From NCBI GenBank assembly GCA_945885475.1, contig CAMCYR010000009.1, forward strand, positions 16,062 to 80,061: a stretch of 64,000 nucleotides of DNA, given 5' to 3'. The notes under the pieces are model-generated. The model was not told the origin of the DNA. It worked only from the letters and a program-made list of their open reading frames with translations, and did not search any database. This DNA is from Chitinophaga pinensis (GTDB lineage: Bacteria > Bacteroidota > Bacteroidia > 2-12-FULL-35-15). Of the stretch, positions 4,030 to 23,073 are shown one piece after another (positions within the stretch are counted from its first letter, which is position 1; every line of letters begins with the position of its first letter). Position numbers and translations under genes: made by a program.

Positions 4030-4635
4030 ATGAAAAAGATACTAGTAGCATTTACATTATTATTAGTGGCGACAACAGGTTTTGCCAAAAAAGATAAAAA
4101 AGCCAAATTAGAACCAGGTATGTATGCTGAAATAACTACCAACAAAGGAGTAATACTTTTGGCACTTGAATATGTGAAAACGCCACTTACTGTTGCCAAT
4201 TTTGTTGGTTTAGCGGAAGGGAAAATAAAAAACAATTCAAAAAAAGCAGGCGTTCCCTATTACGACAGTTTAAAATTCCACCGTGTAATCCCGAACTTTA
4301 TGATTCAAGGGGGCGACCCATTAGGAAACGGAACTGGCGGACCGGGTTACAAATTCAAAGACGAGTTCCACCCTGATCTTAAACACACAGGACCAGGTAT
4401 TTTTTCAATGGCAAATGCTGGACCAGGAACAAATGGTTCTCAATTTTTTATTACACACATTGCTACACCTTGGTTAAATGAAAAACATACTGTTTTTGGT
4501 CACGTTATTAACGGCCAGGATGTTGTAAATGCGATTGTTCAAGGGGACTTGATCATTAAAGTAAAAATCATCCGAAAAGGAAAAGCAGCAAAAAAATTCA
4601 AAGCAGAAAAGGTTTTTGCAGAATTAAATAAATAG
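4030..4635 (+). CDS. Peptidyl-prolyl cis-trans isomerase, cyclophilin type, with signal peptide
   Basis: 201 aa; '[14 protein letters not shown]...[18 protein letters not shown]' cyclophilin signature; N-terminal hydrophobic signal. Confidence 0.9.
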
Positions 4636-4778
4636 GTTAGCGTTGGGGATTTTGACTCTGCTTTCATTGGTCCTATATTCTAATGCGATGGTTGGATTAT
4701 AGCAAGCTTCACCCTTTCATAAAAACATCGTAAGTAACATAAAGTTCAGTCCAGCTCATAAATATTTTTTGTAAAAAA

Positions 4779-5051
4779 ATGATAGCAACAATTGAAATAA
4801 GTATGTATTCACTCAGCGATGGTTACGAACAAAAAGTCATCGATTTCATACTCCGAATAAAAAAAAATAAAAGTATTCGCGTTGAAGTAGGCGGCTTAAG
4901 CACCATGCTTTATGGCGAGTTTAACCTATTGATGGACACAGTTAAAAATGAGATGAAAAACGATTTCGAAAATGGTAAAGCTGTATTTCTCATGAAAATT
5001 GCAGGAACTGAATTAACAAAAGAAAAATTACCCGAATCATTAAAATCATAA
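4779..5051 (+). CDS. YkoF/MTH1187-family (DUF77) thiamine-binding-like small protein
   Basis: 90 aa; 'IEISMYSLSDGYEQKVIDFI...VEVGGLSTMLYGEF...' resembles MTH1187/YkoF fold family. Confidence 0.55.
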   Translation: MIATIEISMYSLSDGYEQKVIDFILRIKKNKSIRVEVGGLSTMLYGEFNLLMDTVKNEMKNDFENGKAVFLMKIAGTELTKEKLPESLKS

Positions 5052-5706: not shown

Positions 5707-8700
5707 ATGAAAAAACTACTCCTTTTTCCGACACTTATACTGTCCCATTTTATGAGTAATGCAATTGAGGTAATCGAAAATCCCTTTGCAAAATCATTCG
5801 AAAAAGCCTATTCAGTCCACCCTGAAATTTCCAGAGGAATGCTTGAAGCGGTTGCATTTTGTAATACACGATTCACGCATATCACACACCGCGCTATTGA
5901 ATCAGAAAGCTGCGCAGGAATTCCAAACGCATATGGTGTAATGGGTCTAACCTTAGACGGCAAAAACTACTTCAACAATAACCTTATTACGGTTTCTGAA
6001 CTTTCGTTGATCAGCACGAATGAAGTGATCAACGTTCCAGAAAAAAACATTCTTGCTTTCGCTGATGCTTATGCAAAAGTGAAAATAATGCTTAATATCA
6101 GCAGCAATAAAGCAGCGGATCAATTAACTATTTTAAACTACTTGAGCGAGTTGCCAAGAGAAACTACCGGGCAAATTTATGCACTGGCGAGTCAAGAATT
6201 CGGATATGTTCAGTTTTTAATGAACGTTGATTATCAGCATCAGTATAATTTTCCTGATCATCAATTAGATCCCGAGAAAATATTCGGAAAGGACAACTAT
6301 GCTATTTTAAGCTCTTCATCAGTTATCGTTACAGATGAAAAAGTATACAATAAAAGTGGACAAACATTTCAGAGATCTGCTCTATCATCAGATTATGCTC
6401 CCGCCATTTGGAATGCAGCAGCTTCCTGTAATTTTAGTTCAAGAAGTAGTACAGCAGTTTCTGCGGTGACAATCCATACCGTTCAAGGTACGTATGCAGG
6501 ATGCATTTCATGGTTTCAGAATTGCGCTGCAAGTGTTTCCGCGCATTATGTTGCACGTTCAAGTGACGGGCAGATCACGCAAATGGTTTTAGAATCCATG
6601 AAAGCATGGCATGTTGGTTCTCATAATCCATACACAATCGGAATTGAGCATGAAGGATACATTAGTTCGGCATCCTGGTATACAAATGCAATGTATAATG
6701 GATCAGCTTCTTTGGTGAGAGATATTTGCATAAGTGGATACGGGATTAATCCCTTGAGATGTTATTATGGCTCTGGCTGTTCCGGTGGAGCATCCACTTG
6801 CGGGATAGGCTCTTGTACAACGATCAAAGGCCATCAAATGTTCAGCGCACAAACACATACGGATCCTGGACCATTTTGGAATTGGGCAAAATATTATTTA
6901 CTGATTAATAACAGTCCTGTAATTTCAACAATCACTACTGCAGCTGGAAACTATTATGACAGTGGCGGATCTACCGGAAACTATTCTAATGACGAGCGTT
7001 TGCTAAGACTTATCCAACCAGCGGGAGCAACATCAATCACTTTAAATTTCACAGCATTCAATACAGAATTAAACTGGGATTATTTATTTATATATGATGG
7101 CGCAACCACCGCTGCGCCACTGATCGGACAATATACGGGAACGTCATCTCCCGGCAGTGTTACTTCAAGCAGCGGCTCTTTACTTTTAGAGTTTCGTTCT
7201 GATTGTGCAACTGTTTCTTCAGGTTGGGCAGCTAACTGGACAAGCACTTCAGGTTTTGCGACAACAGCAGACAGCATTGCTCCTACTACAAGTGTGTCAA
7301 CAAGCGGTGTATGGGAAACTTCAAATTTTGTGGCCAACTTTACTGATGCAGATAATGCAGGTGGAAGCGGCTTAGAAAAAAGTTACTACCAAGTAATTGA
7401 TTTCAACGGAACAGAATGGAGAGCAAATAATAACAATGGTTTTTTTGCCGACAATTTTGATGATGCGATTCATCCTGATTGGACAACAGCAGTTGGAACT
7501 TTTAGCATCAATGCGGGATCACTTTATCAAAGCGATGAAGCAAATGGAAATACAAATATCTATGCTGCTTTGAATCAAAGTTTATCGGATAGGTCTTTGT
7601 TCAATTTCTACGGTAAAATAGATGGAGCAGGTATTTCCAGAAGAGCAGGTTTTCATTTCTTCTCTGATAACGGCAGTCTTACAAACAGAGGGAATTCCTA
7701 TTTTGTTTGGTTCAGAGTGGATGATGGATTTCTACAGATCTATAAAGTAGCCGGTGATGTTTTTGGATCACCGGTTGTTAACGTTCCGTTTATTACAATT
7801 GCCGGACAATGGTACGACTACAAAGTAATTCATGATCATATTACTGGAAAGATCACGATATACAGAGACAATCAATTTGTAACGTCTTGGACCGACCCAT
7901 CTCCGTTAGCTACAATCGGAAATTCAATTTCTTTTCGCACAGGAAATGCAAATTTCGCGATCAACGAATTAAAGATATATCGTTCTAGAAATCCTTCATC
8001 TGCAAATATAACAGCAGGTGCTGCTAGCACGAATGATATCCGTTTTCAAAATCCGAATCCGACAACGTTTTCAGCCAAAGTAAAATCAATTTGTGCAGAT
8101 ACTGCAGGAAATCTTTCTGCAATTTTTTATCAGAATATCAATGTCGATTGGACAGCACCAAGCGCTGTTGATACACTCAACGACGGAACAGGAGCTGACA
8201 TCGCGATCACAACCTCCGCAACAGATCTTTCAGCAAACTGGAGTATTTCCGATGATCCCCATTCTGCAATCGCCCATTACTGGTATGCGGTAGGAACAAG
8301 TCCGGGTGCAACAGATGTTATGAACTGGACCGACAATTGGTATAGCGACAGTGTTACTGTTTCAGGATTAAGTTTAGTGAACTTACAAACATATTATTTC
8401 AGTGTAAAGGCGGAAGACGGAGCGGGATTAATTTCTGAGGTTGTGAGTAGTAACGGACAAATGGTTCAGCTAATAGCTACAGGAACGGAAGATCAGTCAG
8501 CAAATTCCGAAATAACGATTTCCCCGAATCCATTCTCCAATAATTCAATCATTACGTATTCTTTATCCAAGAATTCTAATGTAGAAATTATCCTGAATGA
8601 TGTTTTAGGAAAAGAAATACACTTATTCAATGCAGGTCAAACTGCAGGTAAACATGAGCTCACAATCAATGCTACTGAAATGAAATTATCAAAAGGGATG

Positions 8701-8760
8701 TATTTTATAAAAATCAGAACAGATAATTCGCAAAAAACAATTAAGGTCATCATTAAATAA
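5707..8760 (+). CDS. T9SS-secreted multidomain N-acetylmuramoyl-L-alanine amidase (amidase_2/PGRP-like) with CUB-like, lectin/LamG-like and FN3-like domains and type-A Por C-terminal sorting domain
   Basis: 1017 aa; amidase_2 motifs 'AWHVGSHNPYTIGIEHEG' and 'HTDPGPFWNW' (approx nt 6415-6900); CUB-like 'LNFTAFNTELNWDYLFIYDG...'; C-terminal 'ISPNPFSNNS...GMYFIKIRTD...IKVIIK' Por_Secre_tail (nt ~8515-8757). Confidence 0.8.
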   Translation: MKKLLLFPTLILSHFMSNAIEVIENPFAKSFEKAYSVHPEISRGMLEAVAFCNTRFTHITHRAIESESCAGIPNAYGVMGLTLDGKNYFNNNLITVSELSLISTNEVINVPEKNILAFADAYAKVKIMLNISSNKAADQLTILNYLSELPRETTGQIYALASQEFGYVQFLMNVDYQHQYNFPDHQLDPEKIFGKDNYAILSSSSVIVTDEKVYNKSGQTFQRSALSSDYAPAIWNAAASCNFSSRSSTAVSAVTIHTVQGTYAGCISWFQNCAASVSAHYVARSSDGQITQMVLESMKAWHVGSHNPYTIGIEHEGYISSASWYTNAMYNGSASLVRDICISGYGINPLRCYYGSGCSGGASTCGIGSCTTIKGHQMFSAQTHTDPGPFWNWAKYYLLINNSPVISTITTAAGNYYDSGGSTGNYSNDERLLRLIQPAGATSITLNFTAFNTELNWDYLFIYDGATTAAPLIGQYTGTSSPGSVTSSSGSLLLEFRSDCATVSSGWAANWTSTSGFATTADSIAPTTSVSTSGVWETSNFVANFTDADNAGGSGLEKSYYQVIDFNGTEWRANNNNGFFADNFDDAIHPDWTTAVGTFSINAGSLYQSDEANGNTNIYAALNQSLSDRSLFNFYGKIDGAGISRRAGFHFFSDNGSLTNRGNSYFVWFRVDDGFLQIYKVAGDVFGSPVVNVPFITIAGQWYDYKVIHDHITGKITIYRDNQFVTSWTDPSPLATIGNSISFRTGNANFAINELKIYRSRNPSSANITAGAASTNDIRFQNPNPTTFSAKVKSICADTAGNLSAIFYQNINVDWTAPSAVDTLNDGTGADIAITTSATDLSANWSISDDPHSAIAHYWYAVGTSPGATDVMNWTDNWYSDSVTVSGLSLVNLQTYYFSVKAEDGAGLISEVVSSNGQMVQLIATGTEDQSANSEITISPNPFSNNSIITYSLSKNSNVEIILNDVLGKEIHLFNAGQTAGKHELTINATEMKLSKGMYFIKIRTDNSQKTIKVIIK

Positions 8761-11024: not shown

Positions 11025-12626
11025 CTAATTATATTTTATAGCACTATCAAATGTATCTGCGCTGCTTTGCATTAAATCAAATTCCCATCCTTGCGGATAT
11101 GGCGCTTCCAATAATGAACCTTTTAATAAATAAGGATACATTTCGGCATAGGTTTGAATTTGATGTGCATTCACTCGCCTATAAATATGCGATCGGTGCA
11201 AATTATCAGGATGTTTAATGCCGGCAGCCGACATTAATTCTACAGCGGCTTTAACTGTTTCGTGTTGAAAGTTTGCCACTCTTACCTTTTTTAAATTAAC
11301 ATCTAATCCTTTAAATAAATTTGGATTTTGAGTTGCCACACCTGTTGGACAAGTATTTGCATTACATTCCAGTGCCTGAACACAACCCAACGACATCATC
11401 ATAGATCTTGCAGCGCTGCACATATCGGCACCCAAAGAGAAATTCTTAACTAAATCAAATCCTGTATGCACTTTAGCTGAAGCAATTATTTTGATGTGTT
11501 TTTTTAAACCAAAACCATTCAGCGCATCATACACGAATGCTAAAGCTTCCCGCAATGGCATACCTACCGAATTACTAAACTCTAGTGGTGCGGCTCCAGT
11601 GCCGCCTTCTCCACCGTCAACAGTAATAAAATCAGGCATTATGTTTGTTTGTATCATGGCTTTACAAATAGCAATGAATTGACTTTTTTGCCCAATGCAT
11701 AATTTAAATCCTATTGGTTTTCCACCACTTAATTCTCTTAGTCGTTTAATAAAATAAAGAAGTTCTAATGGCGTACCAAATGCTTTGTGATAAGAAGGAG
11801 AAAGAACATCTTTTCCTTTTTCTACTAAACGTATTTTGGCAATTTCCTCAGTCACTTTTGCAGCTGGTAAAATACCGCCATGGCCCGGCTTTGCGCCTTG
11901 CGATAATTTAATTTCAACCATTTTTACATTTGGCAATATAGCGCGCTCTGCAAATGCGTCTCCATTAAATGTTCCATCTTGGTTTCTGCATCCAAAATAA
12001 CCTGTTCCAATTTGCCAAACAACATCGCCCTCTGGCAATAAATGGTAAGGGCTCAAGCCGCCTTCGCCTGTATTATGAAAAAAACCACCAATTTTAGCGC
12101 CACCATTTAATGCCATAATTGCATTTTTACTTAATGAACCAAAACTCATGGCCGAAATATTAAAAATACTGGCGCTATATGGATGCTTACAATCTGGGCC
12201 ACCAACTGTAACCCTTGGGTTATGAACCCCATCTTCCAATGGCAATGGTGCAATCGAATGATTTAGCCATTCGTAACCTGTTTCATAAACATTTAATTGA
12301 GTGCCAAAAGCAGTAGAATCCGCTACTTTTTTTGAACGTTGATAAATAACATTTCTACTTAATCGGTTGTAGGGTGCACCATCGGTATCTGATTCAATAA
12401 AATACTGATAAATTTTGGGACGCATCCATTCTGCCCACCATCTCATACGCCCAACAACAGGAAAATTACTAATTAAGCTATGTTGAGTTTGAACCATATC
12501 TTTTATTCCGAGTAACACAAAAGGAATAATAATAACAAAAGACCATAAAAAGGCAGGATAAAAAGCACTAATAGCGCCAAAGAATAGGATTAATAATATG
12601 CATAGGTAAATAAATTTTCTTCTCAT
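11025..12626 (-). CDS. FMN-binding glutamate synthase family protein (GltS central-domain-like), membrane anchored
   Basis: 533 aa; N-terminal TM helices; 'VDGGEGGTGAAP...' and Cys-rich FMN/Fe-S region characteristic of glutamate synthase domain-2 family. Confidence 0.85.
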   Translation of the reverse strand: MRRKFIYLCILLILFFGAISAFYPAFLWSFVIIIPFVLLGIKDMVQTQHSLISNFPVVGRMRWWAEWMRPKIYQYFIESDTDGAPYNRLSRNVIYQRSKKVADSTAFGTQLNVYETGYEWLNHSIAPLPLEDGVHNPRVTVGGPDCKHPYSASIFNISAMSFGSLSKNAIMALNGGAKIGGFFHNTGEGGLSPYHLLPEGDVVWQIGTGYFGCRNQDGTFNGDAFAERAILPNVKMVEIKLSQGAKPGHGGILPAAKVTEEIAKIRLVEKGKDVLSPSYHKAFGTPLELLYFIKRLRELSGGKPIGFKLCIGQKSQFIAICKAMIQTNIMPDFITVDGGEGGTGAAPLEFSNSVGMPLREALAFVYDALNGFGLKKHIKIIASAKVHTGFDLVKNFSLGADMCSAARSMMMSLGCVQALECNANTCPTGVATQNPNLFKGLDVNLKKVRVANFQHETVKAAVELMSAAGIKHPDNLHRSHIYRRVNAHQIQTYAEMYPYLLKGSLLEAPYPQGWEFDLMQSSADTFDSAIKYN

Positions 12627-12861
12627 GTTCGATGTTATTTTAAAATATAAGTAAATATAAACTTATATTTTTTACTTTAAAAAAAAATCTAAATAAGAAA
12701 GGAAGGTCAACTGATTAATACTCTACCTTTTTTTAATGATAGGAATTTTATAAAGAAAAGGCAACTGAAATTATCTGATCTACGAAATGAAAAATTAGAT
12801 GTCCGTTGAATGAATACTGAAATAAATAACCGGAATCTACCATAGAATTCAAGAAATAAAA

Positions 12862-13659
12862 TTACCTCTTTTTCTTCTTAGGCTTCTCTTTTACAGCTTC
12901 TTCTTCGTATTTCAAGATACCACCCCAATAGCTCATTTGAGTTGTAATCCAAGCTCTACGTTTTTGAATGTATCCACTTGGATTTCCTGCGTTGAACCGA
13001 ATTGGATTGGGCAAAACAGCAGCAATTGTAGCCGCCTCTGATTTACTTAAATAACGTGCATCCTTTTTAAAAAATGTTTTCGATGCCGCCTGCGCACCAT
13101 AGATACCATCGCCCATTTCAATCACATTCAGATACACCTCCATGATTCGTTCTTTACTCCACAATGTTTCAATCAGAAATGTAAAGTATACCTCAAAACC
13201 TTTACGAACGTAGCTTCTACCCTGCCAAAGAAAAACATTTTTTGCTGTCTGCTGACTTATTGTACTTGCCCCACGTGTTTTTTTATGTGTTTCGTTATAA
13301 TCCATTGCTTTTTGAATAGCCTCAAAATCGAAACCATTGTGCTTGATAAAATTCTGATCTTCAGAACAAACAACAGCTAACTGAAGACTGGAAGCAATTT
13401 CATCAAGAGGCACCCACTCTTTTTTCAGTTTCATCTCTTTGCCATCCATTTTTTGTTCTATACAACGTATGAGCATAAGAGGCGTAATAGGCACTGGAAC
13501 CCAACGAAATAAAATAACGGAAAGAATAGTAATAATGAAAAACCACACTGTAGCTTTCCAAGTATAACGCCAAATTTTTTTTAGAAATTCTTTCACCTTA
13601 AAAATCAAAATCGAATTTAGGACAATCGGCTGCACCATTCGGTCTATCATACCCTTCAC
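12862..13659 (-). CDS. mtgA: Monofunctional biosynthetic peptidoglycan transglycosylase
   Basis: 265 aa; GT51 motifs 'STISQQTAKNVFLW...RKGFEVYFTFLIETLWSKERIMEVYLN'; 5' end overlaps PorP/SprF 3' end (true start probably an internal Met). Confidence 0.85.
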   Translation of the reverse strand: MKGMIDRMVQPIVLNSILIFKVKEFLKKIWRYTWKATVWFFIITILSVILFRWVPVPITPLMLIRCIEQKMDGKEMKLKKEWVPLDEIASSLQLAVVCSEDQNFIKHNGFDFEAIQKAMDYNETHKKTRGASTISQQTAKNVFLWQGRSYVRKGFEVYFTFLIETLWSKERIMEVYLNVIEMGDGIYGAQAASKTFFKKDARYLSKSEAATIAAVLPNPIRFNAGNPSGYIQKRRAWITTQMSYWGGILKYEEEAVKEKPKKKKR

Positions 13660-14575
13660 TGCTCATGACAGGCGACATACCCATCATAAATTCGGTAGAG
13701 TTTGCATTAGCAGAGCGGAAACGCGATATCGTATAATCATATGCAAAACCGACAAGTACATTTTTAAAAACACGAATTTGTATCATTCCGGAGATTGCAT
13801 CATGCATTCGGTATGAAAGCCCAAGTCCGATTCGTTGACGAAAGTAGGTCATAAAATTAAATTGCGCAGAAGGAATACCTATAAAATTAGATTGGATATT
13901 TACACCCGGAACAAAAACATAATCATAACCTTCCGATTTAAACTTTTTAGAAGCGCTGAATACTGCAGTAGGAAGCAATCTTCCTGGTGTTCCGATTTTA
14001 TTACTCGCCTGCTTTAATGAGTTTTTATAGATGTTACGTAAAGATAATCCAACAGCTATTTTTTTTGAATATAAATAAATTCCCGGAATAAAATCTGGCA
14101 ACAAAACCTGCGGACTAATTTGAGACAAAGCGGGATCGGTAGCATTAAAAACAGAATTTGTCAAAGCAACACTTTTGATGCCGGCAGCAATCCCGACACT
14201 GAAATAATATTTAGCTGACAATTTTAAATGAATTGCGTAAGAACCATATGCAGCCTGGTTTGTAAAAACACCGAATTTATCCTGCTCGACATAAGCTCCT
14301 ATTCCATGCCAATAATATTTGAATCCCTTTTTACCAAATGCTTTGGTCACACTTGCAAAATTAGTTTCAGGAGCAAATGCAAAACCACGCCACTGCGATC
14401 TTCTACCCACCATTACATATAATCCTTTGCCGCTTCCGGCGACAGCAGGATTTAATCCGTAATCGTTCATCATGAATTGAGTATACTGAACAGCCTGTTG
14501 AGCATATACTGAAACAGAAAACAATAAAAGTATGACGACTATTTTAATTTTTATCATTTTATAATTGATACGCAT
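13598..14575 (-). CDS. PorP/SprF-family type IX secretion system outer-membrane protein
   Basis: 325 aa; signal peptide then 'QQAVQYTQFMMNDYGLNPAVAG' hallmark N-terminus of PorP/SprF family; predicted beta-barrel; start probably at Met7 giving 4-nt overlap with upstream gene. Confidence 0.85.
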   Translation of the reverse strand: MRINYKMIKIKIVVILLLFSVSVYAQQAVQYTQFMMNDYGLNPAVAGSGKGLYVMVGRRSQWRGFAFAPETNFASVTKAFGKKGFKYYWHGIGAYVEQDKFGVFTNQAAYGSYAIHLKLSAKYYFSVGIAAGIKSVALTNSVFNATDPALSQISPQVLLPDFIPGIYLYSKKIAVGLSLRNIYKNSLKQASNKIGTPGRLLPTAVFSASKKFKSEGYDYVFVPGVNIQSNFIGIPSAQFNFMTYFRQRIGLGLSYRMHDAISGMIQIRVFKNVLVGFAYDYTISRFRSANANSTEFMMGMSPVMSSEGYDRPNGAADCPKFDFDF

Positions 14576-15120
14576 CCTTTAATAATTGTTCCTTCATCCG
14601 ACTGATTATGATAAATTACATAATAGTAACTTGCGACAGGCAATGGAACACCAAATAGATCTTTTCCATCCCACAGTTCATATAGTCCTTTTTTTTCGAA
14701 TACTTTTTGCCCTAGACGATTGTAAACAAGAAAGCATGCATCAGAAAAATATTCCGAGTTTTGTATTGTCCAGGAATCATTTATTAAGTCAGCGTTCGGC
14801 GTAAATACAAATTCAGGAGCCATTTCACAAACAATCAACTTTACTTCAATTACAACTGTTGTACTGTCCCCACTTCCATCCCTAATAACAACCGAATATA
14901 CTCCTTCATTAATATCATGAAGGAAGGAAGTGGTGTCTGAAGTACTCCATAAAAAAGTATAAGGTGTATTCGTGGATGTAACTACCACTTCCACATCACC
15001 ATATTCCTTATGATTACATTTAACATCTTTTTTAATGATATTAAATGTAATTTGTGAAAAAGAGACTCCACAAAAAAGAAGTAATAGAAAAGTTGCACTA
15101 ATTTTTTTCATCAGTTGCAC
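14554..15120 (-). CDS. Small T9SS type-B C-terminal-domain protein (gliding-motility-associated CTD) with one Ig-like domain
   Basis: 188 aa; signal peptide; C-terminal 'FTPNADLINDSWTIQN...YNRLGQKVFEKKGLYELWDGKD...YYYVIY' matches type-B CTD; immediately upstream of PorP/SprF as in SprB-SprF pairs. Confidence 0.75.
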   Translation of the reverse strand: MQLMKKISATFLLLLFCGVSFSQITFNIIKKDVKCNHKEYGDVEVVVTSTNTPYTFLWSTSDTTSFLHDINEGVYSVVIRDGSGDSTTVVIEVKLIVCEMAPEFVFTPNADLINDSWTIQNSEYFSDACFLVYNRLGQKVFEKKGLYELWDGKDLFGVPLPVASYYYVIYHNQSDEGTIIKGCVSIIK

Positions 15121-15836
15121 AATTTAGTAACAAGTTCATCTGCCATAATACTTCCCTTCTCAGCAGCCGTTTTCAAAAGTTCACAGGCAGATACTTTTTC
15201 ACCATGCTGATACATTGTAGTAGCTAAACCTATGTAGGCTTCACGGTAAGAAGGATCTAACTCAATAACTTTTTTATAGTCCGCAACCGATCCCGAATAA
15301 TCGCCAGCAATATCTTTCCAGAAAGCACGGCTGTAATAAGCATTTGTATACCTCTCATCAATGGAAATGGATTTATCGAGATCTTGGATTGCGGAGGAAT
15401 AATCATCTAAATGCGCTTTGGCTAATGCCCTGTTAAAATAAGGTTTTGGCTTCAGTGGATTTAATTCGATGGCTTTATTAAAATCCTTGATCGCAGCAAT
15501 GTAATCTTTTAATTGTGCTTTTACTATTCCCCTACCGTTGAGTGCATCCAGGTATTCAGGGTTTAATTTGATCGCTTTATCCAATAATTTGATCGCCAAT
15601 TTATTTTCACCCATTTTATAATTAATAAACCCCTGCAGACAAAAAGCACTATCATAGTATGGGTTTTGGTTTATTGCGTTATCAAGGTCGTGAAGTGCGG
15701 CAGAATAATCTTTCTGCGAATCGTTGATCAATGCACTTTTATAAAACTCATAAGCCGAGTTTTGTGAAAATGAAATAACAGAATTAACCAGAAATAAAAA
15801 CAGAAAAACGCTAACTGCAATAATATGTTTCATCAT
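15111..15836 (-). CDS. Secreted tetratricopeptide-repeat protein
   Basis: 241 aa; signal peptide; ~6 TPR units (repeated 'A...Y..A...L..A..LNP'). Confidence 0.8.
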   Translation of the reverse strand: MMKHIIAVSVFLFLFLVNSVISFSQNSAYEFYKSALINDSQKDYSAALHDLDNAINQNPYYDSAFCLQGFINYKMGENKLAIKLLDKAIKLNPEYLDALNGRGIVKAQLKDYIAAIKDFNKAIELNPLKPKPYFNRALAKAHLDDYSSAIQDLDKSISIDERYTNAYYSRAFWKDIAGDYSGSVADYKKVIELDPSYREAYIGLATTMYQHGEKVSACELLKTAAEKGSIMADELVTKLCN

Positions 15837-16585
15837 AACAAATTTAGAAAAATTGATAACAAGTAACCGAAAATATTTTAATAAAAAAAAATTTAAGATT
15901 AAGTAATTTGGAGCCTTTAACTATTTATTTGAAATAAAAGTACGTAGGCAAAACAAACATGATAAAATTTCAAATTTATTTAATATTCATACTACTTAAA
16001 AATAAATGCACCACACTCGTGGAACAATATCCAAAAGCCAATTTACAAAAAAGCACTTGAAAACGACCAGTCAAAAAAGAAAACCATAAAATACGGGATA
16101 TTCATTTTTAGTGCGCTGAAAGGTCAACGTTGGAATAAACCTCAAACAAACTTATTGACTTAAAAATTGGTTTATTATAGCTGAAGGATCAAAGAATTAC
16201 TATAGATAATTGATTTAGTAATTCTAAGTTCATCTTATACAGTTAAAAAACAGAAGTAAAAAGAAAAAAAATTATAATTTAATTAAAAGAAGAATAGTCT
16301 TCGAACTGCTTACGACTCCCAAGTAAATTCAAATTTCTGAAACTATTTTTTTTAGAAAAAACTGTTAATAAAAGCAAAGAAAATCCCAAAACGAATCCGC
16401 GATTCCCAATTCGGGAATCCGATTGTAACAAAAGCCCACAAGATACTGAATATCAATAGATTAATAGGTGGCGTTTTATTTGGATGTAGAGTCTGAAATA
16501 TAGTAACAAATAAAAAGCACATTCTAAATTTGCCTACTAACCCTATACTGGTTAAAAAAACAAGTATTGGGAAATCGTACAAATT

Positions 16586-19500
16586 ATGATAAAAATTAAA
16601 AAATATACTCTGAGTGTTTTGCTAATTATAATTTTAGCAACTAGTTACTCGCAGAGTTTCAATTTTAAAAATTACAATACAAAGTCTGGTCTGATAGGAA
16701 CAAATGTAAACGGAATCTACCAAGATAGCAAAGGTTATATATGGTTCGCCGTTCAAGGAGGACTAAGCCGCTTCGATGGAAGCCAGTTTCGTAACTTCAC
16801 AAAGGAAAACGGATTAATCGGAAATGATGTTACTAGCATAGTTGGTGATAAAAGAGGGAATATTTGGATTGGAACAACAGAAGGTATTTCAAAATATGAT
16901 GGTGTTTCATTTAAAAATTATTCTACAAAAAATGGCTTAGTAGATAATTTCATCCGGAATGTCTTCATCGACAATAATGATCAACTGTGGGTGGCCACAG
17001 ACAATGGAGGTGTTTCAAAACTAAACAAGGAAACTTTTGAAAACTTTACAATAGCTACAGGCCTTTTGACAAATACTGTTTTTGCTATAACGCAGGATAA
17101 AAAAGGTAATTATTGGTTTGCAACAAATAGTGGGATATGCAAATACAACGGAAATGAAATCATCAACTTCCTCAATCAAAAGAACATTTCAGGAAAAGAA
17201 TTTTTTTCAATACTTATCGATTCAGAAGGGAGCATATTCTTTGCAGGTGAAATAGGAGATGGTTTTATAAAATATTCGAATGGGAAATTTGAAAAAAAAT
17301 CATTCCCTGAATATTTACCTAAAAATAGTCGAATCTTCAGCATGATGGAAGATAAACATGGAAGTATCTGGTTTTCCTCTGATAATGATGGAATTATAAA
17401 ATATGATAAAAAAGATTTTTACACTTACAACGAAAAAAACGGACTTTCTTCCAATCAAGTCTATGCGATAAAAGACGACTACGAAGGCAACATTTGGATT
17501 GGGACAACCAATGGAGGTGCAGATAAGTTAAATAACGAATCGTTTGCCGCTTTCACTGAAAAAGATGGACTATCTGCTAATAAAATAGCTAGCGTTTATA
17601 AAAACAAGGATGCTCTTTTTATTGGAACACAAGGCACAGGACTAAATATTTTTACAAAGGGCTTTTATAATTTCAAACAAGAAATAAAAGAATTAAAAAA
17701 TGAAAAAATATTTTCAATTGCCGAAAATAAGAAAAACGAAATATGGATTGGTACGGAAAAATCCGGGATTTATGTATTGGAAAAGAAAGAAAATAATTAT
17801 TCTATAAAAAAACATATACCAATACTTCTTAATAAATCATTAGGGCTCGTTGATAAAATAATTTTCGATAAAAATGGTAATACTTGGATTTCTACCTATG
17901 GCAATGGTGCATTTTTAATTACTATTTCAGGAGAAATTAAAAACTATTCTACAGAAACAGATTTCCCTTCTAATAATTTATTAACGATACATGAGGATAA
18001 AAAGGGAAATATTTGGTTCGGTTCAATTGATGTTGGAGCTATAAAATATGATGGAAAGAAGTTCATTATCATCAATGAGAAATTGGGCTTATCAAACAAT
18101 GCTGTATGGTCAATCACCGAAGACGAAAATGACAATATATTTTTAGGAACAGGAGAGGGCGGTATTAATTGTGTAAATGGAAAAAACATTACAAAAATTG
18201 ACCGATCTGATGGACTTTGCTCAAACTTTATAGCGACATTGAATTGGGATAGTTTCGAAAAGGTAATTTGGGTTGGAACGAACAATGGAATCAACAAATT
18301 AAAACTTGGTTCAAATTTAAAACCTCTTTCGATACAGTATTATTCTGAAGAAGAAGGATTTAAAGGAACGGAAGTAACATCCTGTTCCCAAGATAAAGAT
18401 GGACTAGTTTGGTTTGCTACGATAAATGGAGTTTACCGCTATGATAGAAAATTTGATCTGCCAAATAAGTCAGCTCCAAAACTTGTTCTGACAGAAATAT
18501 TACTAGACTATAAGAATGTTGATTGGAAGAATTACTGTGACTCTGTTGATATAAGAACTAATATTCCAAAATCGCTTGTACTTGCCTATAATAAAAAACA
18601 CTTAACATTTAATTTCAGAGCCTTAACGACAGACAATGTTAAATACACATTTATTTTACTTGGGCAAGATTCAGAATGGTCACCTCTGAGTTCATTATCT
18701 GAAGCAAATTTCTCAAACATTATCCCGGGAAGATCCTACCAGTTCAAGTTGAGAGCAGTTAATTCAAATGGTATTTGGAGTGATGAAATTGTATCATTTG
18801 AATTTAAAATAAATTCACCTTGGTGGCAAACGTGGTGGTTCATTTCAATAAGCATTCTGCTTGGAATGTCAAGTATATATATTTTCGTAAAACTTCGAAC
18901 AAACAAACTAGCAAAGGAAAAAAAGGTGCTAGAAAAAAATGTTGCTGAAAGAACCTTTGAATTATCGGTAGCATTAAAAGAAATCAATGATAGCATTAAT
19001 TACGCTAAAATAATTCAACACTCCATACTTCCACTATCTGATGAAATCCATTTGGATTTACCTCAATCGTTTGTTTACTATGAACCTAAAAATGTAGTGA
19101 GTGGCGACTTTTACTGGTTTCATAAAAAAAATAAAAAGCTATACTTTGCAGTAGCAGATTGTACGGGACATGGTGTACCAGGAGCATTTATGAGTATGAT
19201 TGGTAGTTCATTATTAAACGAAATATTTAATGAAAATAACAATCCAGATGCCGCTGAGATTCTTAATTTATTGCATTCCAGAGTAAGAAAGGTATTAAAA
19301 CAAGATCGGTACGATGTAAAATCACAAGATGGGATGGATATTTCACTAGTTATTATTGATAATGAGGAAATGAAATTGAATTATGCAGGAGCCAAAAGAC
19401 CTCTTTATTTATTCAGAAAAGAAGATTATGGATATCAATTTATTGAAGCTAAAGCTGATAAGCAATCGATAGGTGGACATCAAAATGAAAATGATTTCAA

Positions 19501-19747
19501 ATTCGCGAACCATTTTTTTTCTCTCCATAAAGGAGATAGTCTATACATGTTCACAGATGGCTATGTTGATCAATTTGGGGGAGGAAATGAAAAAAAATTC
19601 TCTACTAAAAGGTTGAAAGAAACTCTAGAAAGCATGCAGCAATTGGAAATGGATAAACAATCTTCGGAATTATCATCAGTCATCAGTGATTGGAAAGGAA
19701 CCAATGAACAAGTAGATGACATATTAATCATAGGAATTAAAATATAA
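16586..19747 (+). CDS. Sensor protein: two-component-regulator beta-propeller repeats + Y_Y_Y domain + TM helix + PP2C/SpoIIE-type serine phosphatase
   Basis: 1053 aa; >12 'GLxxNxVxxIxxDxxGxxWxGT' propeller repeats; single TM 'WWFISISILLGMSSIYIFV'; C-terminal 'SGDFYWF...FAVADCTGHGVPGAFMSMIG...DGYVDQFGG' PP2C phosphatase motifs. Confidence 0.85.
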   Translation: MIKIKKYTLSVLLIIILATSYSQSFNFKNYNTKSGLIGTNVNGIYQDSKGYIWFAVQGGLSRFDGSQFRNFTKENGLIGNDVTSIVGDKRGNIWIGTTEGISKYDGVSFKNYSTKNGLVDNFIRNVFIDNNDQLWVATDNGGVSKLNKETFENFTIATGLLTNTVFAITQDKKGNYWFATNSGICKYNGNEIINFLNQKNISGKEFFSILIDSEGSIFFAGEIGDGFIKYSNGKFEKKSFPEYLPKNSRIFSMMEDKHGSIWFSSDNDGIIKYDKKDFYTYNEKNGLSSNQVYAIKDDYEGNIWIGTTNGGADKLNNESFAAFTEKDGLSANKIASVYKNKDALFIGTQGTGLNIFTKGFYNFKQEIKELKNEKIFSIAENKKNEIWIGTEKSGIYVLEKKENNYSIKKHIPILLNKSLGLVDKIIFDKNGNTWISTYGNGAFLITISGEIKNYSTETDFPSNNLLTIHEDKKGNIWFGSIDVGAIKYDGKKFIIINEKLGLSNNAVWSITEDENDNIFLGTGEGGINCVNGKNITKIDRSDGLCSNFIATLNWDSFEKVIWVGTNNGINKLKLGSNLKPLSIQYYSEEEGFKGTEVTSCSQDKDGLVWFATINGVYRYDRKFDLPNKSAPKLVLTEILLDYKNVDWKNYCDSVDIRTNIPKSLVLAYNKKHLTFNFRALTTDNVKYTFILLGQDSEWSPLSSLSEANFSNIIPGRSYQFKLRAVNSNGIWSDEIVSFEFKINSPWWQTWWFISISILLGMSSIYIFVKLRTNKLAKEKKVLEKNVAERTFELSVALKEINDSINYAKIIQHSILPLSDEIHLDLPQSFVYYEPKNVVSGDFYWFHKKNKKLYFAVADCTGHGVPGAFMSMIGSSLLNEIFNENNNPDAAEILNLLHSRVRKVLKQDRYDVKSQDGMDISLVIIDNEEMKLNYAGAKRPLYLFRKEDYGYQFIEAKADKQSIGGHQNENDFKFANHFFSLHKGDSLYMFTDGYVDQFGGGNEKKFSTKRLKETLESMQQLEMDKQSSELSSVISDWKGTNEQVDDILIIGIKI

Positions 19748-19801
19748 TTAAACCCATCACTTTACTAAACATTAAATAAAACTTTTTAATTATTTCATAT
19801 T

Positions 19802-22800
19802 ATGAAACTAAAATTACTTACTATTTTTTACGTCTGTTCTTTTTTAGCAGTAAACGCTAAAAATTTTGATGAGAAGGCTACTATATTAAATTTAAATACT
19901 TCTTCTAATGAGGTTATTTATGGACTGAAAATTTCTCCACTAGCCTGCACTATTACTGGTTCCATTTCATCCCAATCGAATGTAACGTGTTTTGGAGGGA
20001 ATAATGGCACTGCTGAAATTAATGCATCCGGAGGAACGGGTGCACTAACCTATGACTGGACACCGGGAAACCCAATAGGAGATGGCACACCAAGTGTATC
20101 AGGATTAACAGCTGGCACATGGACTTGCACGGTTACTGATATAAACAGTTGCAGCTTTTCACAAACCGTTAATATCAACGAACCAACTCCTATAAATCTT
20201 GCTTTTTTTTCACAAACAGATGTTTCCTGTTATGGAGGAAGTAATGGTGAATTATCTATTTATGCTATTGGGGGAACTGGAACACTGTTGTATGACTGGA
20301 CTCCTGGTTCCTTTCCAGGTGATGGAACACCTAATGTTACTGGTTTATATGCTGGTACATGGATTTGTAATATTACAGACGACAATAACTGTACTAAAGC
20401 AGAAGTGTTTATTATTAATGAACCTCCACCAATAGTTATTAATACAACTTTACAAACAAACGTTTCTTGTAATGCCGGAAATAATGGCGCAACTTCCGTT
20501 TCTGTAAGTGGAGGATCAACTGGAGGATATGTTTACAACTGGACGCCTGGAAATCCAAGCGGCGATGGCACAGAAAGCATTACCGATCTAACGGCTAATA
20601 CATGGACATGCACAGTAACAGATGGAATCGGATGCTTGGGGTCACAAACAATTATTATCACCGAACCTTCAATACTTCTTGTTTCTGCTTCATCGCAAAC
20701 AGCTGTTTCTTGCAACTCTGGAAACGATGGATCAGCTACTGTAACAAGTTCGGGAGGAACGGGATCTATTGCTTTCGATTGGAGTCCAGGAAGTCCTTTC
20801 GGTGATGGATCAGCAAATGTTAGCAACTTAAGTGCTGGCACATATACCTGCACCGTTTCTGATGCAAACGCTTGCGCTGCTTCCGAAACATTTACTATAA
20901 ATGAACCATCAGCTATTAGTGCATCCCAATCTATTTCTATTTGTGCCGGACAATCGATTACAGTTGGCAGTAGCACCTATTTATCTTCAGGAATATACAC
21001 GGATATATTAATGGCTTCTAATGGCTGCGATAGTTCAGTTATTACGAATTTAACTATTCTTCCAGTTGTTACGAGTGCTGGTTTTTCATCTAGTATTTCC
21101 GGAATGACTGTCGCTTTTTCTAACACTGGAATTGATGCAACCAATTACTACTGGGACTTTGGAGACGGCTCTTCATCCACAGCAGCTAATCCAACTCACA
21201 CCTATAATTACGGAGGTAATTTCAATGTCTGCCTTATCGCTTCGAATGGTTGCTCTTCCGAAACCGTTTGCCAACTCATTACTATTGTCTGCATTGCTCC
21301 CCTTGCAAGCTTCAGCTCAAACATAAATGGCTTGTCATTAAATTTCATAAGCACTAGTTCAAATGCTGCAAATTTTAATTGGAATTTCGGAGATGGTAAT
21401 TTTTCAACGAATGAAAATCCTAATTATGTTTATTATGCAGCAGGAACCTATACTGTTTGCCTAAACGTGAGCAATGCCTGCGGAACCTATTCTACCTGCG
21501 ATACTGTTACTGTAAATTGTGTATCACCCATCGCAAACTACAGTTCATCCGTAAGCGGTTTAACAGCAACGTTTATTAACACCTCTTCCAATGCAGCAAG
21601 TGTTTCTTGGAACTTTGGAGATAGTAACATATCTAGTTTAAACAACCCTGTACATGTCTATTCAAATCCGGGAACATATACCGTTACATTAATTGTAAGT
21701 AATGGTTGCGGAACAGATTCTATTGCACAGACGGTGATTGTGAACTGCGCATTGCCGGTTGCAAATTTTATATCTTCTCAAACTGGCTTAACAGCAGAAT
21801 TTGTGTCTACATCTACTAATGCTTCAACATTTCAATGGGATTTTGGTGATGGCGCAACCAGTATTTCTCCCTTTCCTCCGCCTCACCTCTACCCGTCAAC
21901 AGCGGCATATACGGCCTGCTTAATTGCTAGCAATGGTTGTGGAGCAGATACGCTTTGTAATGCGCTAAATATATGTACACCGCCTGTTGCATCCTTCAAC
22001 TCTAACTATACAGCACTTACGGGTATTTTTACAAATACAACGCCTTCGTCTTCTGGAAATTCATATTTATGGACATTTGGTGATGGGACTGCAACAAATT
22101 TTGTCAACCCAACACATCAATTTGGTCTATCAGGCAACAACACTATTTGTTTGACCGCAACAAACAGCTGTGGTACAAACACATTTTGTTTGACAGATAC
22201 ACTATTCTGTGCTCCATTTATGGATCAGGGAATATGTATGGTAACGGTAGATACCGCCAACAATCACAACATTGTATATTGGGACAAAACAGGATTGACG
22301 GGCGTTGATAGTTTCAGAATTTACAGAGAAGTGGCAACGAGTGTATGGTCGCATATTGCCTCAGTTGCTTTCGCAGATTTAAGTGAATATCACGACAACG
22401 TAGCAGATGCTGCTGTAAGTCAATGGGCATATAAAATTGCTATTTTAGATACATGTGGAAATGAATTACCACGGAGTTTATATCATTATACAATACATCT
22501 TCAAGTGTTAGGTGGTGGTAATTTACAATGGAGTCTTTATTCCATAGAGGCCACAGCAAATCCAGTTAATTTTTATCAGGTGTATCGGGACGACTTCGGT
22601 ACGGGTAATTTTTTACCGATTAGTTTAACCATACCTGGTACATTTACTTCCTATACCGATATTAATTTTGCATCGTTTCCACTTGCAGATTATATGGTGC
22701 AGGTTGATTGGAATATTTCTTGTACGCCCACGCGCATAGCAATCAATACCTCACACTCCAATATTCGTCACCAATCTATCTCTGTCATAGGAATTTCTGA

Positions 22801-23044
22801 GAATGATCGCGCTTCAGCAGTTACTATTTTTCCTAATCCGGCTAACGACAATGTGATGATTGAAGTTGAAAACCTTATTGGTCAAGAGCTAAAAATAATG
22901 AATGCATTGGGAGAACTTATTTTTAATACGAAGATAAAAGATAAGAAAACGGCAGTTGATATTTCTTCTTTTTCTAATGGAATTTATTCAATTCAAATTG
23001 AAACAGAAAATGGAAGAATTGTAAAAAAATTGGTGAAAAACTAA
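19802..23044 (+). CDS. T9SS cargo protein: 4 SprB repeats + Cys module + ~6 PKD domains + type-A CTD
   Basis: 1080 aa; SprB repeats 'CxGGxNGxA...GGTGxxxYDWTPGxPxGDGT...LxAGTxTCTVTDxNxC'; PKD 'WDFGDG...NPTHTY...'; C-terminal 'IFPNPANDNVMIEVENL...GIYSIQIETENG' Por_Secre_tail. Confidence 0.85.
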   Translation: MKLKLLTIFYVCSFLAVNAKNFDEKATILNLNTSSNEVIYGLKISPLACTITGSISSQSNVTCFGGNNGTAEINASGGTGALTYDWTPGNPIGDGTPSVSGLTAGTWTCTVTDINSCSFSQTVNINEPTPINLAFFSQTDVSCYGGSNGELSIYAIGGTGTLLYDWTPGSFPGDGTPNVTGLYAGTWICNITDDNNCTKAEVFIINEPPPIVINTTLQTNVSCNAGNNGATSVSVSGGSTGGYVYNWTPGNPSGDGTESITDLTANTWTCTVTDGIGCLGSQTIIITEPSILLVSASSQTAVSCNSGNDGSATVTSSGGTGSIAFDWSPGSPFGDGSANVSNLSAGTYTCTVSDANACAASETFTINEPSAISASQSISICAGQSITVGSSTYLSSGIYTDILMASNGCDSSVITNLTILPVVTSAGFSSSISGMTVAFSNTGIDATNYYWDFGDGSSSTAANPTHTYNYGGNFNVCLIASNGCSSETVCQLITIVCIAPLASFSSNINGLSLNFISTSSNAANFNWNFGDGNFSTNENPNYVYYAAGTYTVCLNVSNACGTYSTCDTVTVNCVSPIANYSSSVSGLTATFINTSSNAASVSWNFGDSNISSLNNPVHVYSNPGTYTVTLIVSNGCGTDSIAQTVIVNCALPVANFISSQTGLTAEFVSTSTNASTFQWDFGDGATSISPFPPPHLYPSTAAYTACLIASNGCGADTLCNALNICTPPVASFNSNYTALTGIFTNTTPSSSGNSYLWTFGDGTATNFVNPTHQFGLSGNNTICLTATNSCGTNTFCLTDTLFCAPFMDQGICMVTVDTANNHNIVYWDKTGLTGVDSFRIYREVATSVWSHIASVAFADLSEYHDNVADAAVSQWAYKIAILDTCGNELPRSLYHYTIHLQVLGGGNLQWSLYSIEATANPVNFYQVYRDDFGTGNFLPISLTIPGTFTSYTDINFASFPLADYMVQVDWNISCTPTRIAINTSHSNIRHQSISVIGISENDRASAVTIFPNPANDNVMIEVENLIGQELKIMNALGELIFNTKIKDKKTAVDISSFSNGIYSIQIETENGRIVKKLVKN

Positions 23045-23073
23045 AAAGCTTATAAATTAAAAACGACAACTAT

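Follow-up and report, generated by a model that had tools for sequence, protein, structure and literature searches.

A conserved cassette of periplasmic TPR protein, minimal type-B substrate and PorP/SprF-family carrier, followed by mtgA in one lineage

[quoted passage not shown] What can a T9SS substrate of such a size do, and does the cell wall enzyme belong with it? The reading that we prefer and consider probable is that the locus encodes a self-contained type IX cassette of substrate, carrier and periplasmic partner, with mtgA on the same transcript in this lineage.

Layout of the operon

The first gene (15111..15836, minus strand) encodes the periplasmic TPR protein of 241 residues, or 240 if the second ATG is used. 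It is followed on the same strand by the genes for the minimal type-B CTD protein, hereafter the cargo (14554..15111, 185 residues), the PorP/SprF-family outer-membrane carrier (13598..14557, 319 residues) and the monofunctional MtgA (12862..13596, 244 residues). The sequence-only reading of this DNA had described the same operon; the ORFs lie where it placed them, and their family scores exceed the curated cut-offs. It had given the cargo 188 residues, of which the small size stands and the exact length does not. The 188-residue ORF begins at a GTG, and the ATG at 15111, giving 185 residues (MKKISATF..., with a signal peptide), is the likely start because this length fits nearly all homologues and the public gene call on the contig. 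The PorP start is most likely at 14557, in agreement with the public gene call. That of MtgA is most likely the GTG at 13596, since the orthologues in loci L002, L006, L091 and L093 begin with VKEF or VKDF at the same place.

The junctions were read from the DNA. The TPR stop and the cargo ATG share one nucleotide (TGATG), and the cargo stop and the PorP ATG overlap by four (ATGA). The PorP stop is separated from the GTG of mtgA by a single g (TAA-g-GTG), a gap of 1 nt. The overlaps of a few nucleotides proposed earlier are thus present at the first two boundaries and absent from the third, and the operon does run on into a peptidoglycan glycosyltransferase gene.

Upstream of the operon lies an intergenic region of 749 nt with 27% GC (15837..16585), shared with a divergent regulator gene and presumed to be the promoter region. 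It contains no ORF of note, and an Rfam search over the whole window gave no match, hence no known RNA element. Three TAnnTTTG motifs, which are pattern matches only, occur 10, 142 and 318 nt upstream of the operon ATG. A scan of 12400-16700 for sigma-70 promoters and intrinsic terminators, with a tool that does not cover Bacteroidota promoters, gave counts no higher than the shuffled expectation. About 17 kb has been inserted upstream in the window, and this insertion includes a SpoIIE-type gene that the relatives are without.

The cargo, its carrier and the TPR protein

The cargo matches the type-B CTD model TIGR04131 with 48.0 bits (cut-off 35), covering positions 6-83 of the 85 in the profile, and PF13585 (CHU_C) with 62.4 bits (cut-off 27), which bears out the type-B assignment made from the letters. 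It comprises a signal peptide (residues 1-20), a putative SprB-type Ig-like repeat (about 21-96) and the type-B CTD (about 97-185). The signal peptide, MKKISATFLLLLFCGVSFSQ, judged by eye from the sequence, has a hydrophobic core, and all family members whose gene calls are full-length have one. Cys32 and Cys95 in the Ig-like repeat are invariant in the family alignment and are among its 37 invariant columns, as are CTD islands; five conserved islands fall in the last 85 or so residues. Mean pairwise identity is 0.69 for the CTD and 0.55 for the N-terminal domain.

The AlphaFold2 (AF2) model of the cargo has a confident N-terminal beta-sandwich (pLDDT 81-92 for residues 22-90), and its CTD half reaches moderate confidence only (pLDDT 35-76). 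A fold search with this model returned only generic Ig/PKD-like matches, whose TM-scores were low owing to the flexibility of the two-domain model. The predicted fold backs the term Ig-like and nothing beyond it, which agrees with the proposal of one Ig-like domain plus a CTD. The match to the SprB repeat PF13573 scores 22.7 bits, below the gathering cut-off of 28; of the 40 family clusters, 25 have a precomputed match to this model.

A match to the cargo CTD lies at the C-terminus of GhpA. In proteins of 1,833-7,382 residues the family profile finds a unit that occurs 24-90 times, and the profile is collinear with the C-terminal 160 or so residues of these giant repeat proteins, that is, with the last repeat and the CTD of SprB-like adhesins of 2,000-7,000 residues. 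For instance, query positions 22-183 align to residues 5291-5447 of a protein of 5,449 residues. In the representative search with the profile the top 150 matches were all giants, as repeat scores add up, so that search does not count small relatives. In the 80 type-B CTD loci that were fetched, all the other type-B proteins are large, with complete ORFs of at least 363 residues and the largest above 2,100. The view that type-B cargos are usually very large, and this one unusually small, is borne out.

A stub of this kind could be the decaying remnant of a large SprB-like adhesin gene, kept by its overlaps and functionless. The collinearity just described fits such an origin, and so does the rate of evolution, for the cargo is the fastest-changing gene of the block: within the lineage, identity to the window is 85-95% for purL, 74-84% for MtgA, 64-83% for the TPR protein, 59-77% for PorP and 41-60% for the cargo. 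The family, however, does not look like one in decay. It forms about 40 clusters in the window clade, nearly all of 185-186 residues, and full-length calls keep to 182-189 residues in all clades sampled. The signal peptide is intact in each of those calls, no frameshifts or stops were seen, the invariant columns include both cysteines and the CTD islands, and the N-terminal domain is confidently folded in the model. We strongly disfavour the remnant explanation and regard it as highly improbable. The low identity of the cargo, taken with a CTD more conserved than the N-terminal domain, fits a surface-exposed cargo.

A type-B signal requires 150-235 residues (PMC12618676). The mature cargo, at about 165 residues, is no larger than this experimentally defined signal and therefore carries no passenger. 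As judged from its sequence, it is close in size to a type-B signal standing alone and holds little beyond its own export signal. Without a passenger, the role of the cargo must lie in the carrier-substrate complex itself.

The carrier gene directly follows the cargo gene. Its product scores 181.4 bits against TIGR03519 (cut-off 90.55), covering profile positions 2-289 of 292, and 185.3 bits against PF11751, so its PorP/SprF identity does not depend on a poor match. The AF2 model (pTM 0.72, mean pLDDT 75) is a barrel of 14 strands, consistent with a FadL-like outer-membrane beta-barrel, with a disordered C-terminal tail (residues 295-319, pLDDT below 50). A search of the PDB with the PorP sequence gave no matches, and hence no solved homologue by sequence. 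The pairing of the cargo with a PorP/SprF gene of its own, proposed from the letters, recurs in all 16 loci sampled, where a porP/sprF-like gene lies directly downstream of the cargo gene. It was reported that type-B substrate genes are followed directly by a cognate sprF-like gene, which the substrates need in order to be secreted (PMC12618676).

The tail of PorP carries a cysteine, Cys312, that is invariant in 26 PorP sequences within the motif C-P-x-F/L-x-F/Y. It is the only cysteine of the tail, and the CxC of SprF was found in none of the 54 PorP tails examined. Many PorP paralogues have single-Cys 'CP' tails, and Cys312 is for this reason not diagnostic of a particular partner. In SprF, the C-tail cysteine becomes disulfide-bonded to GldK once SprB is loaded and not before, and in P. 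gingivalis PorG a single cysteine also suffices (PMC12635249). Since PorG needs one cysteine only, a single-Cys PorP could form such a bond as well.

The TPR protein scores 92.9 bits against Pfam TPR_1, matches other Pfam TPR models and contains about five to six near-consensus TPR units. A signal peptide is present and a conserved lipobox cysteine absent, and two cysteines near the C-terminus, Cys218 and Cys240, are both invariant. Its PDB matches are consensus TPR proteins only. The protein consists of TPR repeats only, with no beta-propeller, OmpA_C domain or lipobox cysteine. Against five PorE-like proteins of TPR+PD40+OmpA architecture (L009, L021, L023, L028 and L037) the TPR family profile scored at most 9 bits, which is no specific similarity; homology to PorE was therefore rejected, and the analogy to PorE is architectural only.

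Conservation of the cassette and the position of mtgA

The three genes travel together. TPR orthologues lie directly upstream of the small cargo gene in every full locus; those of the purL-type lineage score 318-439 bits, those of the ispG-type lineage 105-148 bits. The order TPR-cargo-PorP is kept across deep clades in which the PorPs are only 30-43% identical and the flanks unrelated, and overlaps of 1-4 nt at the TPR/cargo and cargo/PorP junctions also occur in L002, L006, L008 and L086-L088. The TPR gene had been treated as incidental in the sequence-only reading; it is in fact a conserved third partner, with its overlapping junctions maintained across deep clades. Downstream of PorP, five kinds of neighbours are found in all, mtgA included: a RecD/PIF1-like helicase gene (L008, L086-L088), paaABC (L089), a convergent ribH (locus P0144) and a convergent fur (L090) are the others. 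Because the other lineages keep TPR-cargo-PorP without mtgA, the conserved unit, on this comparison of gene orders, is the three-gene cassette, mtgA not included. Synteny in relatives thus holds for the first three genes and fails for mtgA outside the purL-type lineage.

MtgA itself is ordinary. It scores 283.3 bits against the equivalog TIGR02070 (cut-off 182.65) and 173 bits against PF00912, has Transgly as its sole Pfam domain, is without a transpeptidase domain and possesses an N-terminal membrane anchor. Its translation contains EDQNFIKHNG, GASTISQQ and RKGFE, which we take to be intact GT51 catalytic motifs.

Could mtgA nevertheless be functionally coupled to the cassette? The TPR protein and/or PorP would then recruit MtgA, so that the synthesis of glycan strands or a local remodelling of the wall keeps step with the outer-membrane complex being inserted or anchored, MtgA replacing the peptidoglycan-binding PorE-like protein of other type-B operons. 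The gene is attached to the cassette in 9 distinct loci of the purL-type lineage (9 of 10 sampled, with purL upstream). It begins 1-12 nt after PorP in the window, L001, L002, L004, L006, L007, L091 and L092, and stays in the operon in L093 despite one gene inserted between the two. The four-gene block of the window has remained unbroken by the insertion upstream, while the genes after mtgA vary. L033 provides a second, independent case of mtgA next to a type-B cargo gene, and known type-B operons often contain a peptidoglycan-binding PorE-like third gene (PMC12618676). Against this, mtgA is absent after the cassette in 7 loci of other lineages, which have the four other downstream neighbours, and P0144 has purL upstream as in the window lineage yet convergent ribH where mtgA would be. 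Within the purL-type lineage, moreover, purL and an amino-acid permease gene, both unrelated, are equally syntenic, so mtgA is conserved no better than the background. As a protein, MtgA is a standard equivalog to which no further domain has been added, and our literature search found no paper describing a link between the T9SS and mtgA.

Being confined to one lineage, with background synteny equally strong, the linkage is weak evidence of a functional link, and coupling appears unlikely to us. From gene order, mtgA is probably a co-transcribed passenger of the cassette, a case of lineage-specific operon hitch-hiking; its cotranscription appears limited to the purL-type lineage, where it seems to be without a promoter region of its own. 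It would gain importance only should wall synthesis prove to be tied to the cassette, physically or through regulation. The earlier suggestion that the combination was undescribed holds insofar as no paper was found. Operons of the PorE-like type, in which cargo and PorP are joined by a third gene associated with the cell wall, are already on record (PMC12618676, PMC9143113), and such operons were also recovered in the present data.

Proposed function and relation to known systems

In the preferred reading, that of a substrate, carrier and periplasmic partner cassette, the 185-residue protein would be exported by Sec via its signal peptide and recognised by the T9SS translocon through its type-B CTD. 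The PorP/SprF-family barrel encoded by the overlapping gene would collect it from the translocon, and the cargo would stay bound to the barrel on the cell surface, its CTD uncleaved and its single, putatively SprB-type Ig-like domain exposed. What the sequences show directly are the domain identities, the gene order with its overlaps, the pattern of conservation and the predicted folds; that the cargo is secreted, binds PorP and is exposed at the surface is inferred from the family it belongs to and from gene order. For PorP it could be a cap or a loading ligand; alternatively, it could present a minimal epitope at the surface. A complex of PorP, PG1035 and PorE with the CTD uncleaved was reported, and a 'cap' role was proposed (PMC9143113). 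The soluble TPR protein probably docks at the periplasmic face of the complex, where the TPR and propeller of PorE are proposed to sit on PorP. The invariant cysteine of the periplasmic PorP tail may plausibly be disulfide-bonded to GldK/PorK, as the SprF tail is to GldK. The mtgA gene, intact and fixed downstream of PorP in one lineage, would be co-expressed and remain outside the conserved machine.

A narrower version makes the cargo a loading ligand only. It would load PorP for release and for joining of the tail cysteine to the GldK/PorK track or ring, the product being the barrel-TPR complex, and the co-expression of MtgA in the purL-type lineage would be deliberate. The order of events for SprB, whose loading precedes the SprF-GldK disulfide, suggests this version, which we consider doubtful. 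If true, the barrel-TPR complex would be a new accessory component of the T9SS/gliding apparatus in uncultured Bacteroidota, and the tie to MtgA would build an envelope machine together with the wall in that lineage.

A small T9SS cargo working through its CTD has a precedent in PorA, a type-A protein of 246 residues and the smallest verified type-A cargo, whose CTD regulates T9SS genes by binding PorY (PMC12152298). The present cargo might likewise serve in signalling or regulation, acting mainly through its CTD at the translocon or in the periplasm; it could report T9SS activity or control PorP availability, with the TPR protein as its receptor or chaperone. The lack of a passenger domain, the CTD as the more conserved half, and a TPR partner that is soluble, periplasmic and strictly co-conserved would all suit such a role. 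However, no sensor kinase or regulator is conserved beside the cassette in the loci compared, the SpoIIE-type gene of the window lying in the insertion. All characterised type-B proteins end bound to a PorP-like carrier on the surface (PMC9143113, PMC12618676), and the Ig-like domain is retained with its two invariant cysteines, which would be needless if the CTD alone mattered. A regulatory role seems quite unlikely.

Under the preferred cassette reading, a conserved natural substrate of about 165 mature residues, a 319-residue carrier and a 240-residue soluble partner make an attractive minimal system. It suits structural work on CTD-carrier recognition and the question whether single-Cys PorP tails are disulfide-bonded to GldK/PorK, and it lets one ask what task is left to a carrier whose 'cargo' lacks a passenger.

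Among known systems, MtgA is like its characterised counterparts (e.g. E. coli MtgA) in its full-length equivalog match, N-terminal anchor and GT51 motifs; only the operon context differs. PorA resembles the cargo as a minimal T9SS substrate of small domain and CTD, with its function in the CTD and no passenger. It differs in its type-A CTD and PorV route, and it is cleaved, A-LPS-linked and acts on PorXY, whereas the present cargo has a type-B CTD, a dedicated PorP and no regulator conserved nearby.

With SprB-SprF of F. johnsoniae (the sprCDBF operon), and with pairs of type-B substrate and cognate carrier in general, the locus shares a type-B CTD gene immediately upstream of its own PorP/SprF-family gene. 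The N-terminal domain is probably an SprB-type repeat, and the carrier shares the predicted 14-strand barrel and a conserved cysteine in the periplasmic C-tail; by analogy, the cargo would need the carrier to leave the translocon and to be anchored at the surface. The cargo, however, is reduced to the last repeat and CTD in 185 residues, while SprB is of 669 kDa. The PorP tail has one cysteine (C-P-x-F) and that of SprF a CxC, and the upstream partner is a small TPR protein instead of SprC or SprD.

PorE-PorP-PG1035 of P. gingivalis and the F. johnsoniae operons with a PorE-like protein, type-B substrate and SprF-like carrier (e.g. [quoted passage not shown] Here too, the type-B protein may be a cap and not an effector, the role proposed for the non-essential PG1035, and in both cases a third or fourth gene links to the cell wall. 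PG1035, by contrast, is of about 50 kDa. PorE is a lipoprotein of TPR, beta-propeller, CRD and OmpA_C that binds peptidoglycan, whereas the partner here is TPR-only with no lipobox, and its gene precedes that of the cargo instead of following PorP. The gene connected with the wall here encodes a synthase, MtgA, not a binder, and is not conserved with the cassette. The cassette indicates that PorP-like barrels can have TPR partners of a kind other than PorE.

The four-gene operon and its boundaries

Four ORFs stand in a row on the minus strand at 12862-15836 of the window, and curated HMMs place all four in families without ambiguity. The first encodes a TPR protein (TPR_1, 92.9 bits). It is followed by the gene for a small type-B T9SS sorting-domain protein, the cargo (14554-15111), which scores 48.0 bits with TIGR04131 (cut-off 35) and 62.4 with PF13585 CHU_C (cut-off 27). 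The third gene (13598-14557) encodes a PorP/SprF-family membrane protein, PorP, with 181.4 bits for TIGR03519 (cut-off 90.55) and 185.3 for PF11751. The fourth, mtgA (12862-13596), encodes the monofunctional peptidoglycan transglycosylase MtgA and matches the TIGR02070 equivalog with 283.3 bits (cut-off 182.65). The gene content proposed in the sequence-only reading is borne out, including the type-B assignment of the cargo, for which a TIGR04131 search had been suggested. The GC content of the operon, 0.34-0.36, equals that of the surrounding DNA.

Reading of the DNA gives ATG at 15111 as the most likely start of the cargo (185 residues, MKKISATF...), ATG at 14557 for PorP (319 residues) and GTG at 13596 for MtgA (244 residues). 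This cargo and PorP are identical to the public gene calls on the source contig, and the same lengths are seen in homologues; MtgA orthologues begin VKEF or VKDF at the position matching the window GTG. The cargo, previously put at 188 residues, is still a small type-B protein, but its refined start shortens it to 185. It had also been said that the gene boundaries overlap by a few nucleotides. With the refined starts this holds for the TPR/cargo junction (TGATG, 1 nt) and the cargo/PorP junction (ATGA, 4 nt), but not for PorP/MtgA, where TAA-g-GTG leaves a gap of 1 nt.

Upstream of the operon lies a 749-nt intergenic gap of 27% GC (15837-16585), in which neither an Rfam match nor a convincing ORF was found. 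It contains three TAnnTTTG motifs, resembling the Bacteroidota -7 element, which precede the TPR start by 10, 142 and 318 nt.

Conservation of the cassette and of mtgA

Gene order was compared in 16 loci, the window and others from further genomes; these contigs occur in freshwater samples. The order purL, TPR, cargo, PorP, MtgA defines a purL-type lineage (the window, L001, L002, which equals L003, L004, which is similar to L005, L006, L007, L091, L092 and L093), in which the TPR-cargo-PorP-MtgA block behaves as a unit. Identity to the window there is 85-95% for purL, 74-84% for MtgA, 64-83% for the TPR protein, 59-77% for PorP and 41-60% for the cargo. In all purL-type relatives purL is directly upstream of the TPR gene, once with a Fic gene between. 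In the window, about 17 kb (16586-32926) is inserted between purL (33004-35232) and the operon. This block, which looks like an inserted regulator plus adhesin island, encodes a 1,053-residue Reg_prop/Y_Y_Y/SpoIIE regulator and three giant proteins (1,080, 2,443 and 820 residues) in which SprB and PKD repeats are combined with a type-A CTD. Downstream of mtgA the genes vary between relatives. In L093 a gene for a 168-residue protein is inserted between PorP and mtgA (4498-5004, GCA_025963725.1); the protein has a signal peptide, and its gene shares 4 nt with the beginning of mtgA.

Outside this lineage the cassette of TPR, cargo and PorP genes recurs with unrelated flanks. In four ispG-type loci (L008, L086, L087, L088) it follows ispG and precedes a RecD/PIF1-like helicase gene; elsewhere it is followed by paaABC (L089), by convergent fur (L090) or, with purL upstream, by convergent ribH (P0144 locus). 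The TPR proteins score 105-148 bits, full-length calls of the cargo have 182-183 residues and PorP has 317-330, and the overlaps of 1-4 nt at both junctions are retained. The ispG-type loci also carry a second, divergent PorP/SprF paralogue of 320-327 residues (L008 1135-2112; L086-L088 1-670), some 3-4 kb upstream of the cassette, past a cyclase gene and ispG.

The PorP orthologue group comprises more than 100 clusters in several deep clades, 30-43% identical to the window PorP, and mtgA is present in only one clade. Since the cassette elsewhere has other neighbours, we conclude that mtgA is co-transcribed with it in one lineage and lies outside the conserved machine; what is kept together across lineages is TPR-cargo-PorP and not cargo-PorP-MtgA. 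The linkage that headed the sequence-only reading is thus real in the purL-type lineage, but absent from the seven other loci, and it is weak evidence of function. A permease gene and a 443-aa gene past purL are likewise syntenic in that lineage, so gene order is generally kept there and the persistence of mtgA does not rise above background. A genuine lineage-specific link of the cassette to wall synthesis, which the intact block in purL-type genomes would suit, is accordingly unlikely. The sequence-only reading knew of no description of this pairing, and our literature search found no paper linking mtgA to T9SS genes.

L033 (4117-7114, a Sphingobacteriia MAG) has a 765-residue type-B CTD gene separated by 1 nt from a convergent mtgA homologue (176 bits), without PorP. 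It is a second, independent cargo-mtgA adjacency, a single case against a rough chance expectation of about 0.04 in 80 loci. Directly after a PorP-like gene, three Bacteroidales-type loci (L011 7511-8575, L014 3689-4702, L035 7551-8582) encode Exo_endo_phos_3 (PF19580, 260-277 bits), and L032 and L052 a Polysacc_synt flippase-like protein; we know of no description of either as a recurrent third gene of type-B operons. The window itself (5707-8760) encodes a protein in which Amidase_2 (N-acetylmuramoyl-L-alanine amidase) and CUB domains are joined to a type-A T9SS CTD, a predicted secreted peptidoglycan amidase. Relatives also have a paralogue of the GH18-CUB-CTD type, located downstream of mtgA at a distance of a few genes. 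These proteins are possibly antibacterial or predatory effectors.

The cargo, its carrier and the TPR protein

The cargo family comprises about 40 clusters (at 90% identity), 47-96% identical to the window protein and nearly all of 185-186 residues. Its alignment has 37 invariant columns, including C32 and C95 at either side of the N-terminal domain and the CTD islands F-T-P-N-x-D..D.W, N-R-L-G-Q, W-x-G, Y-x-Y and K-G. AlphaFold2 models residues 22-90 as a confident seven-strand beta-sandwich (pLDDT 81-92), and the CTD with less confidence. Foldseek returned only generic Ig/PKD-like folds, and its top hit was a fragment of GhpA, a T9SS protein from Aureispira; the cargo CTD also matches the extreme C-terminus of GhpA by sequence (E = 1.6e-8). 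Most telling was an exhaustive profile search over 1.84 billion representatives. In it, residues ~20-91 corresponded to a unit of which proteins of 1,833-7,382 residues contain 24-90 copies, and the entire cargo was collinear with the final ~160 residues of giant repeat proteins; for instance, query 22-183 aligned with residues 5291-5447 of a 5,449-residue protein, and query 20-184 with 4309-4473 of one of 4,474. By sequence, the cargo looks like an SprB-type adhesin cut down to its last repeat and type-B CTD. A truncated protein of this kind might be a decaying remnant, yet the fixed length and invariant residues contradict this, and we regard it as highly improbable.

A functional type-B signal spans 150-235 residues, reaching beyond the conserved CTD (PMC12618676). 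The mature cargo, at ~165 residues, is therefore roughly as long as such a signal by itself and has no passenger. At 77 other type-B loci, drawn from 185,579 species genomes, no complete ORF is shorter than 363 residues and the largest exceed 2,100, which justifies the earlier label of "minimal".

In the AF2 model (pTM 0.72) PorP has 14 strands, the number anticipated for FadL-like proteins of the PorV/PorP family, and the 25 residues after them form a disordered tail. Cys312 in this tail, within the motif C-P-x-F/L-x-F/Y, is invariant in 26 aligned sequences. The periplasmic C-tail of SprF has CxC, one Cys of which makes a disulfide with GldK Cys343, and does so only once SprF carries exported SprB; in P. 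gingivalis PorG a single Cys is enough (PMC12635249). No SprF-type CxC was found in 54 PorP tails (L009-L085 and the window family). Among 46 other PorP-like ORFs in the fetched loci, ~18 end CP(R/K)N(L/V)W and ~20, of Bacteroidales type, end RRYRWLDRY without Cys; with CPxFDF of the window family (13598-13672), the C-termini fall into discrete classes, which may bear on which carriers can make a disulfide with GldK/PorK. The Cys-Pro tail is thus a common subfamily trait from which no specific partner follows, and its partner in the window family is one that we infer.

The TPR protein consists of repeats close to the TPR consensus, has a signal peptide and lacks a conserved lipobox. C218 and C240 are invariant in both deep clades, which fits a disulfide-forming periplasmic protein. 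Genuine PorE-like proteins (TPR+PD40+OmpA) are encoded directly downstream of PorP in L009, L021, L023, L028 and L037. The family profile of the TPR protein had no specific match to the TPR domains of these five, so its likeness to PorE lies in the architecture and does not reflect homology.

A proposed mechanism and known systems

Family, gene order, conservation and predicted structure together point to what we consider a probable explanation. The cargo would be exported by Sec, its type-B CTD recognised by the translocon, and the protein picked up by its cognate PorP and held on the surface, where it would expose no more than a single Ig-like domain. The TPR protein would be a periplasmic partner, the PorP tail Cys would possibly be joined to GldK/PorK, and mtgA would be a co-expressed passenger. 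Of the verified type-A cargos PorA is the smallest (246 residues), and its CTD acts as a PorY ligand (PMC12152298); a similar regulatory role for the small cargo seems improbable, slightly more so than the link to wall synthesis. More interesting than the mtgA linkage, and not stressed in the sequence-only reading, is that a TPR protein, a bare-signal cargo and PorP form a cassette conserved widely among uncultured Bacteroidota. It is of value chiefly because it offers a minimal natural system in which to study type-B recognition, the loading of carriers and their possible coupling by disulfides.

By an established rule, the gene for a type-B substrate is immediately followed by an sprF-like gene that is needed for secretion of the substrate, and nine of 12 type-B genes in F. 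johnsoniae obey it (PMC12618676). For cognate CTD-carrier pairs the same study reports ipTM above 0.8. A PorE-PorP-PG1035 complex has been described, in which PG1035 is non-essential and has been suggested to cap PorP (PMC9143113). F. johnsoniae has five or six operons with a PorE-like, a type-B and an SprF-like gene; for such complexes a static attachment to the wall has been proposed, and mobile substrates lack a PorE-like partner (PMC9143113, PMC12618676). Compared with the other type-B loci, the present cargo is the smallest type-B substrate. Compared with the PorE-like operons, the partner is a TPR protein that stands by itself and has its gene upstream, whereas PorE-like proteins are encoded downstream, and one lineage has a wall synthase, mtgA, where others have a wall binder.
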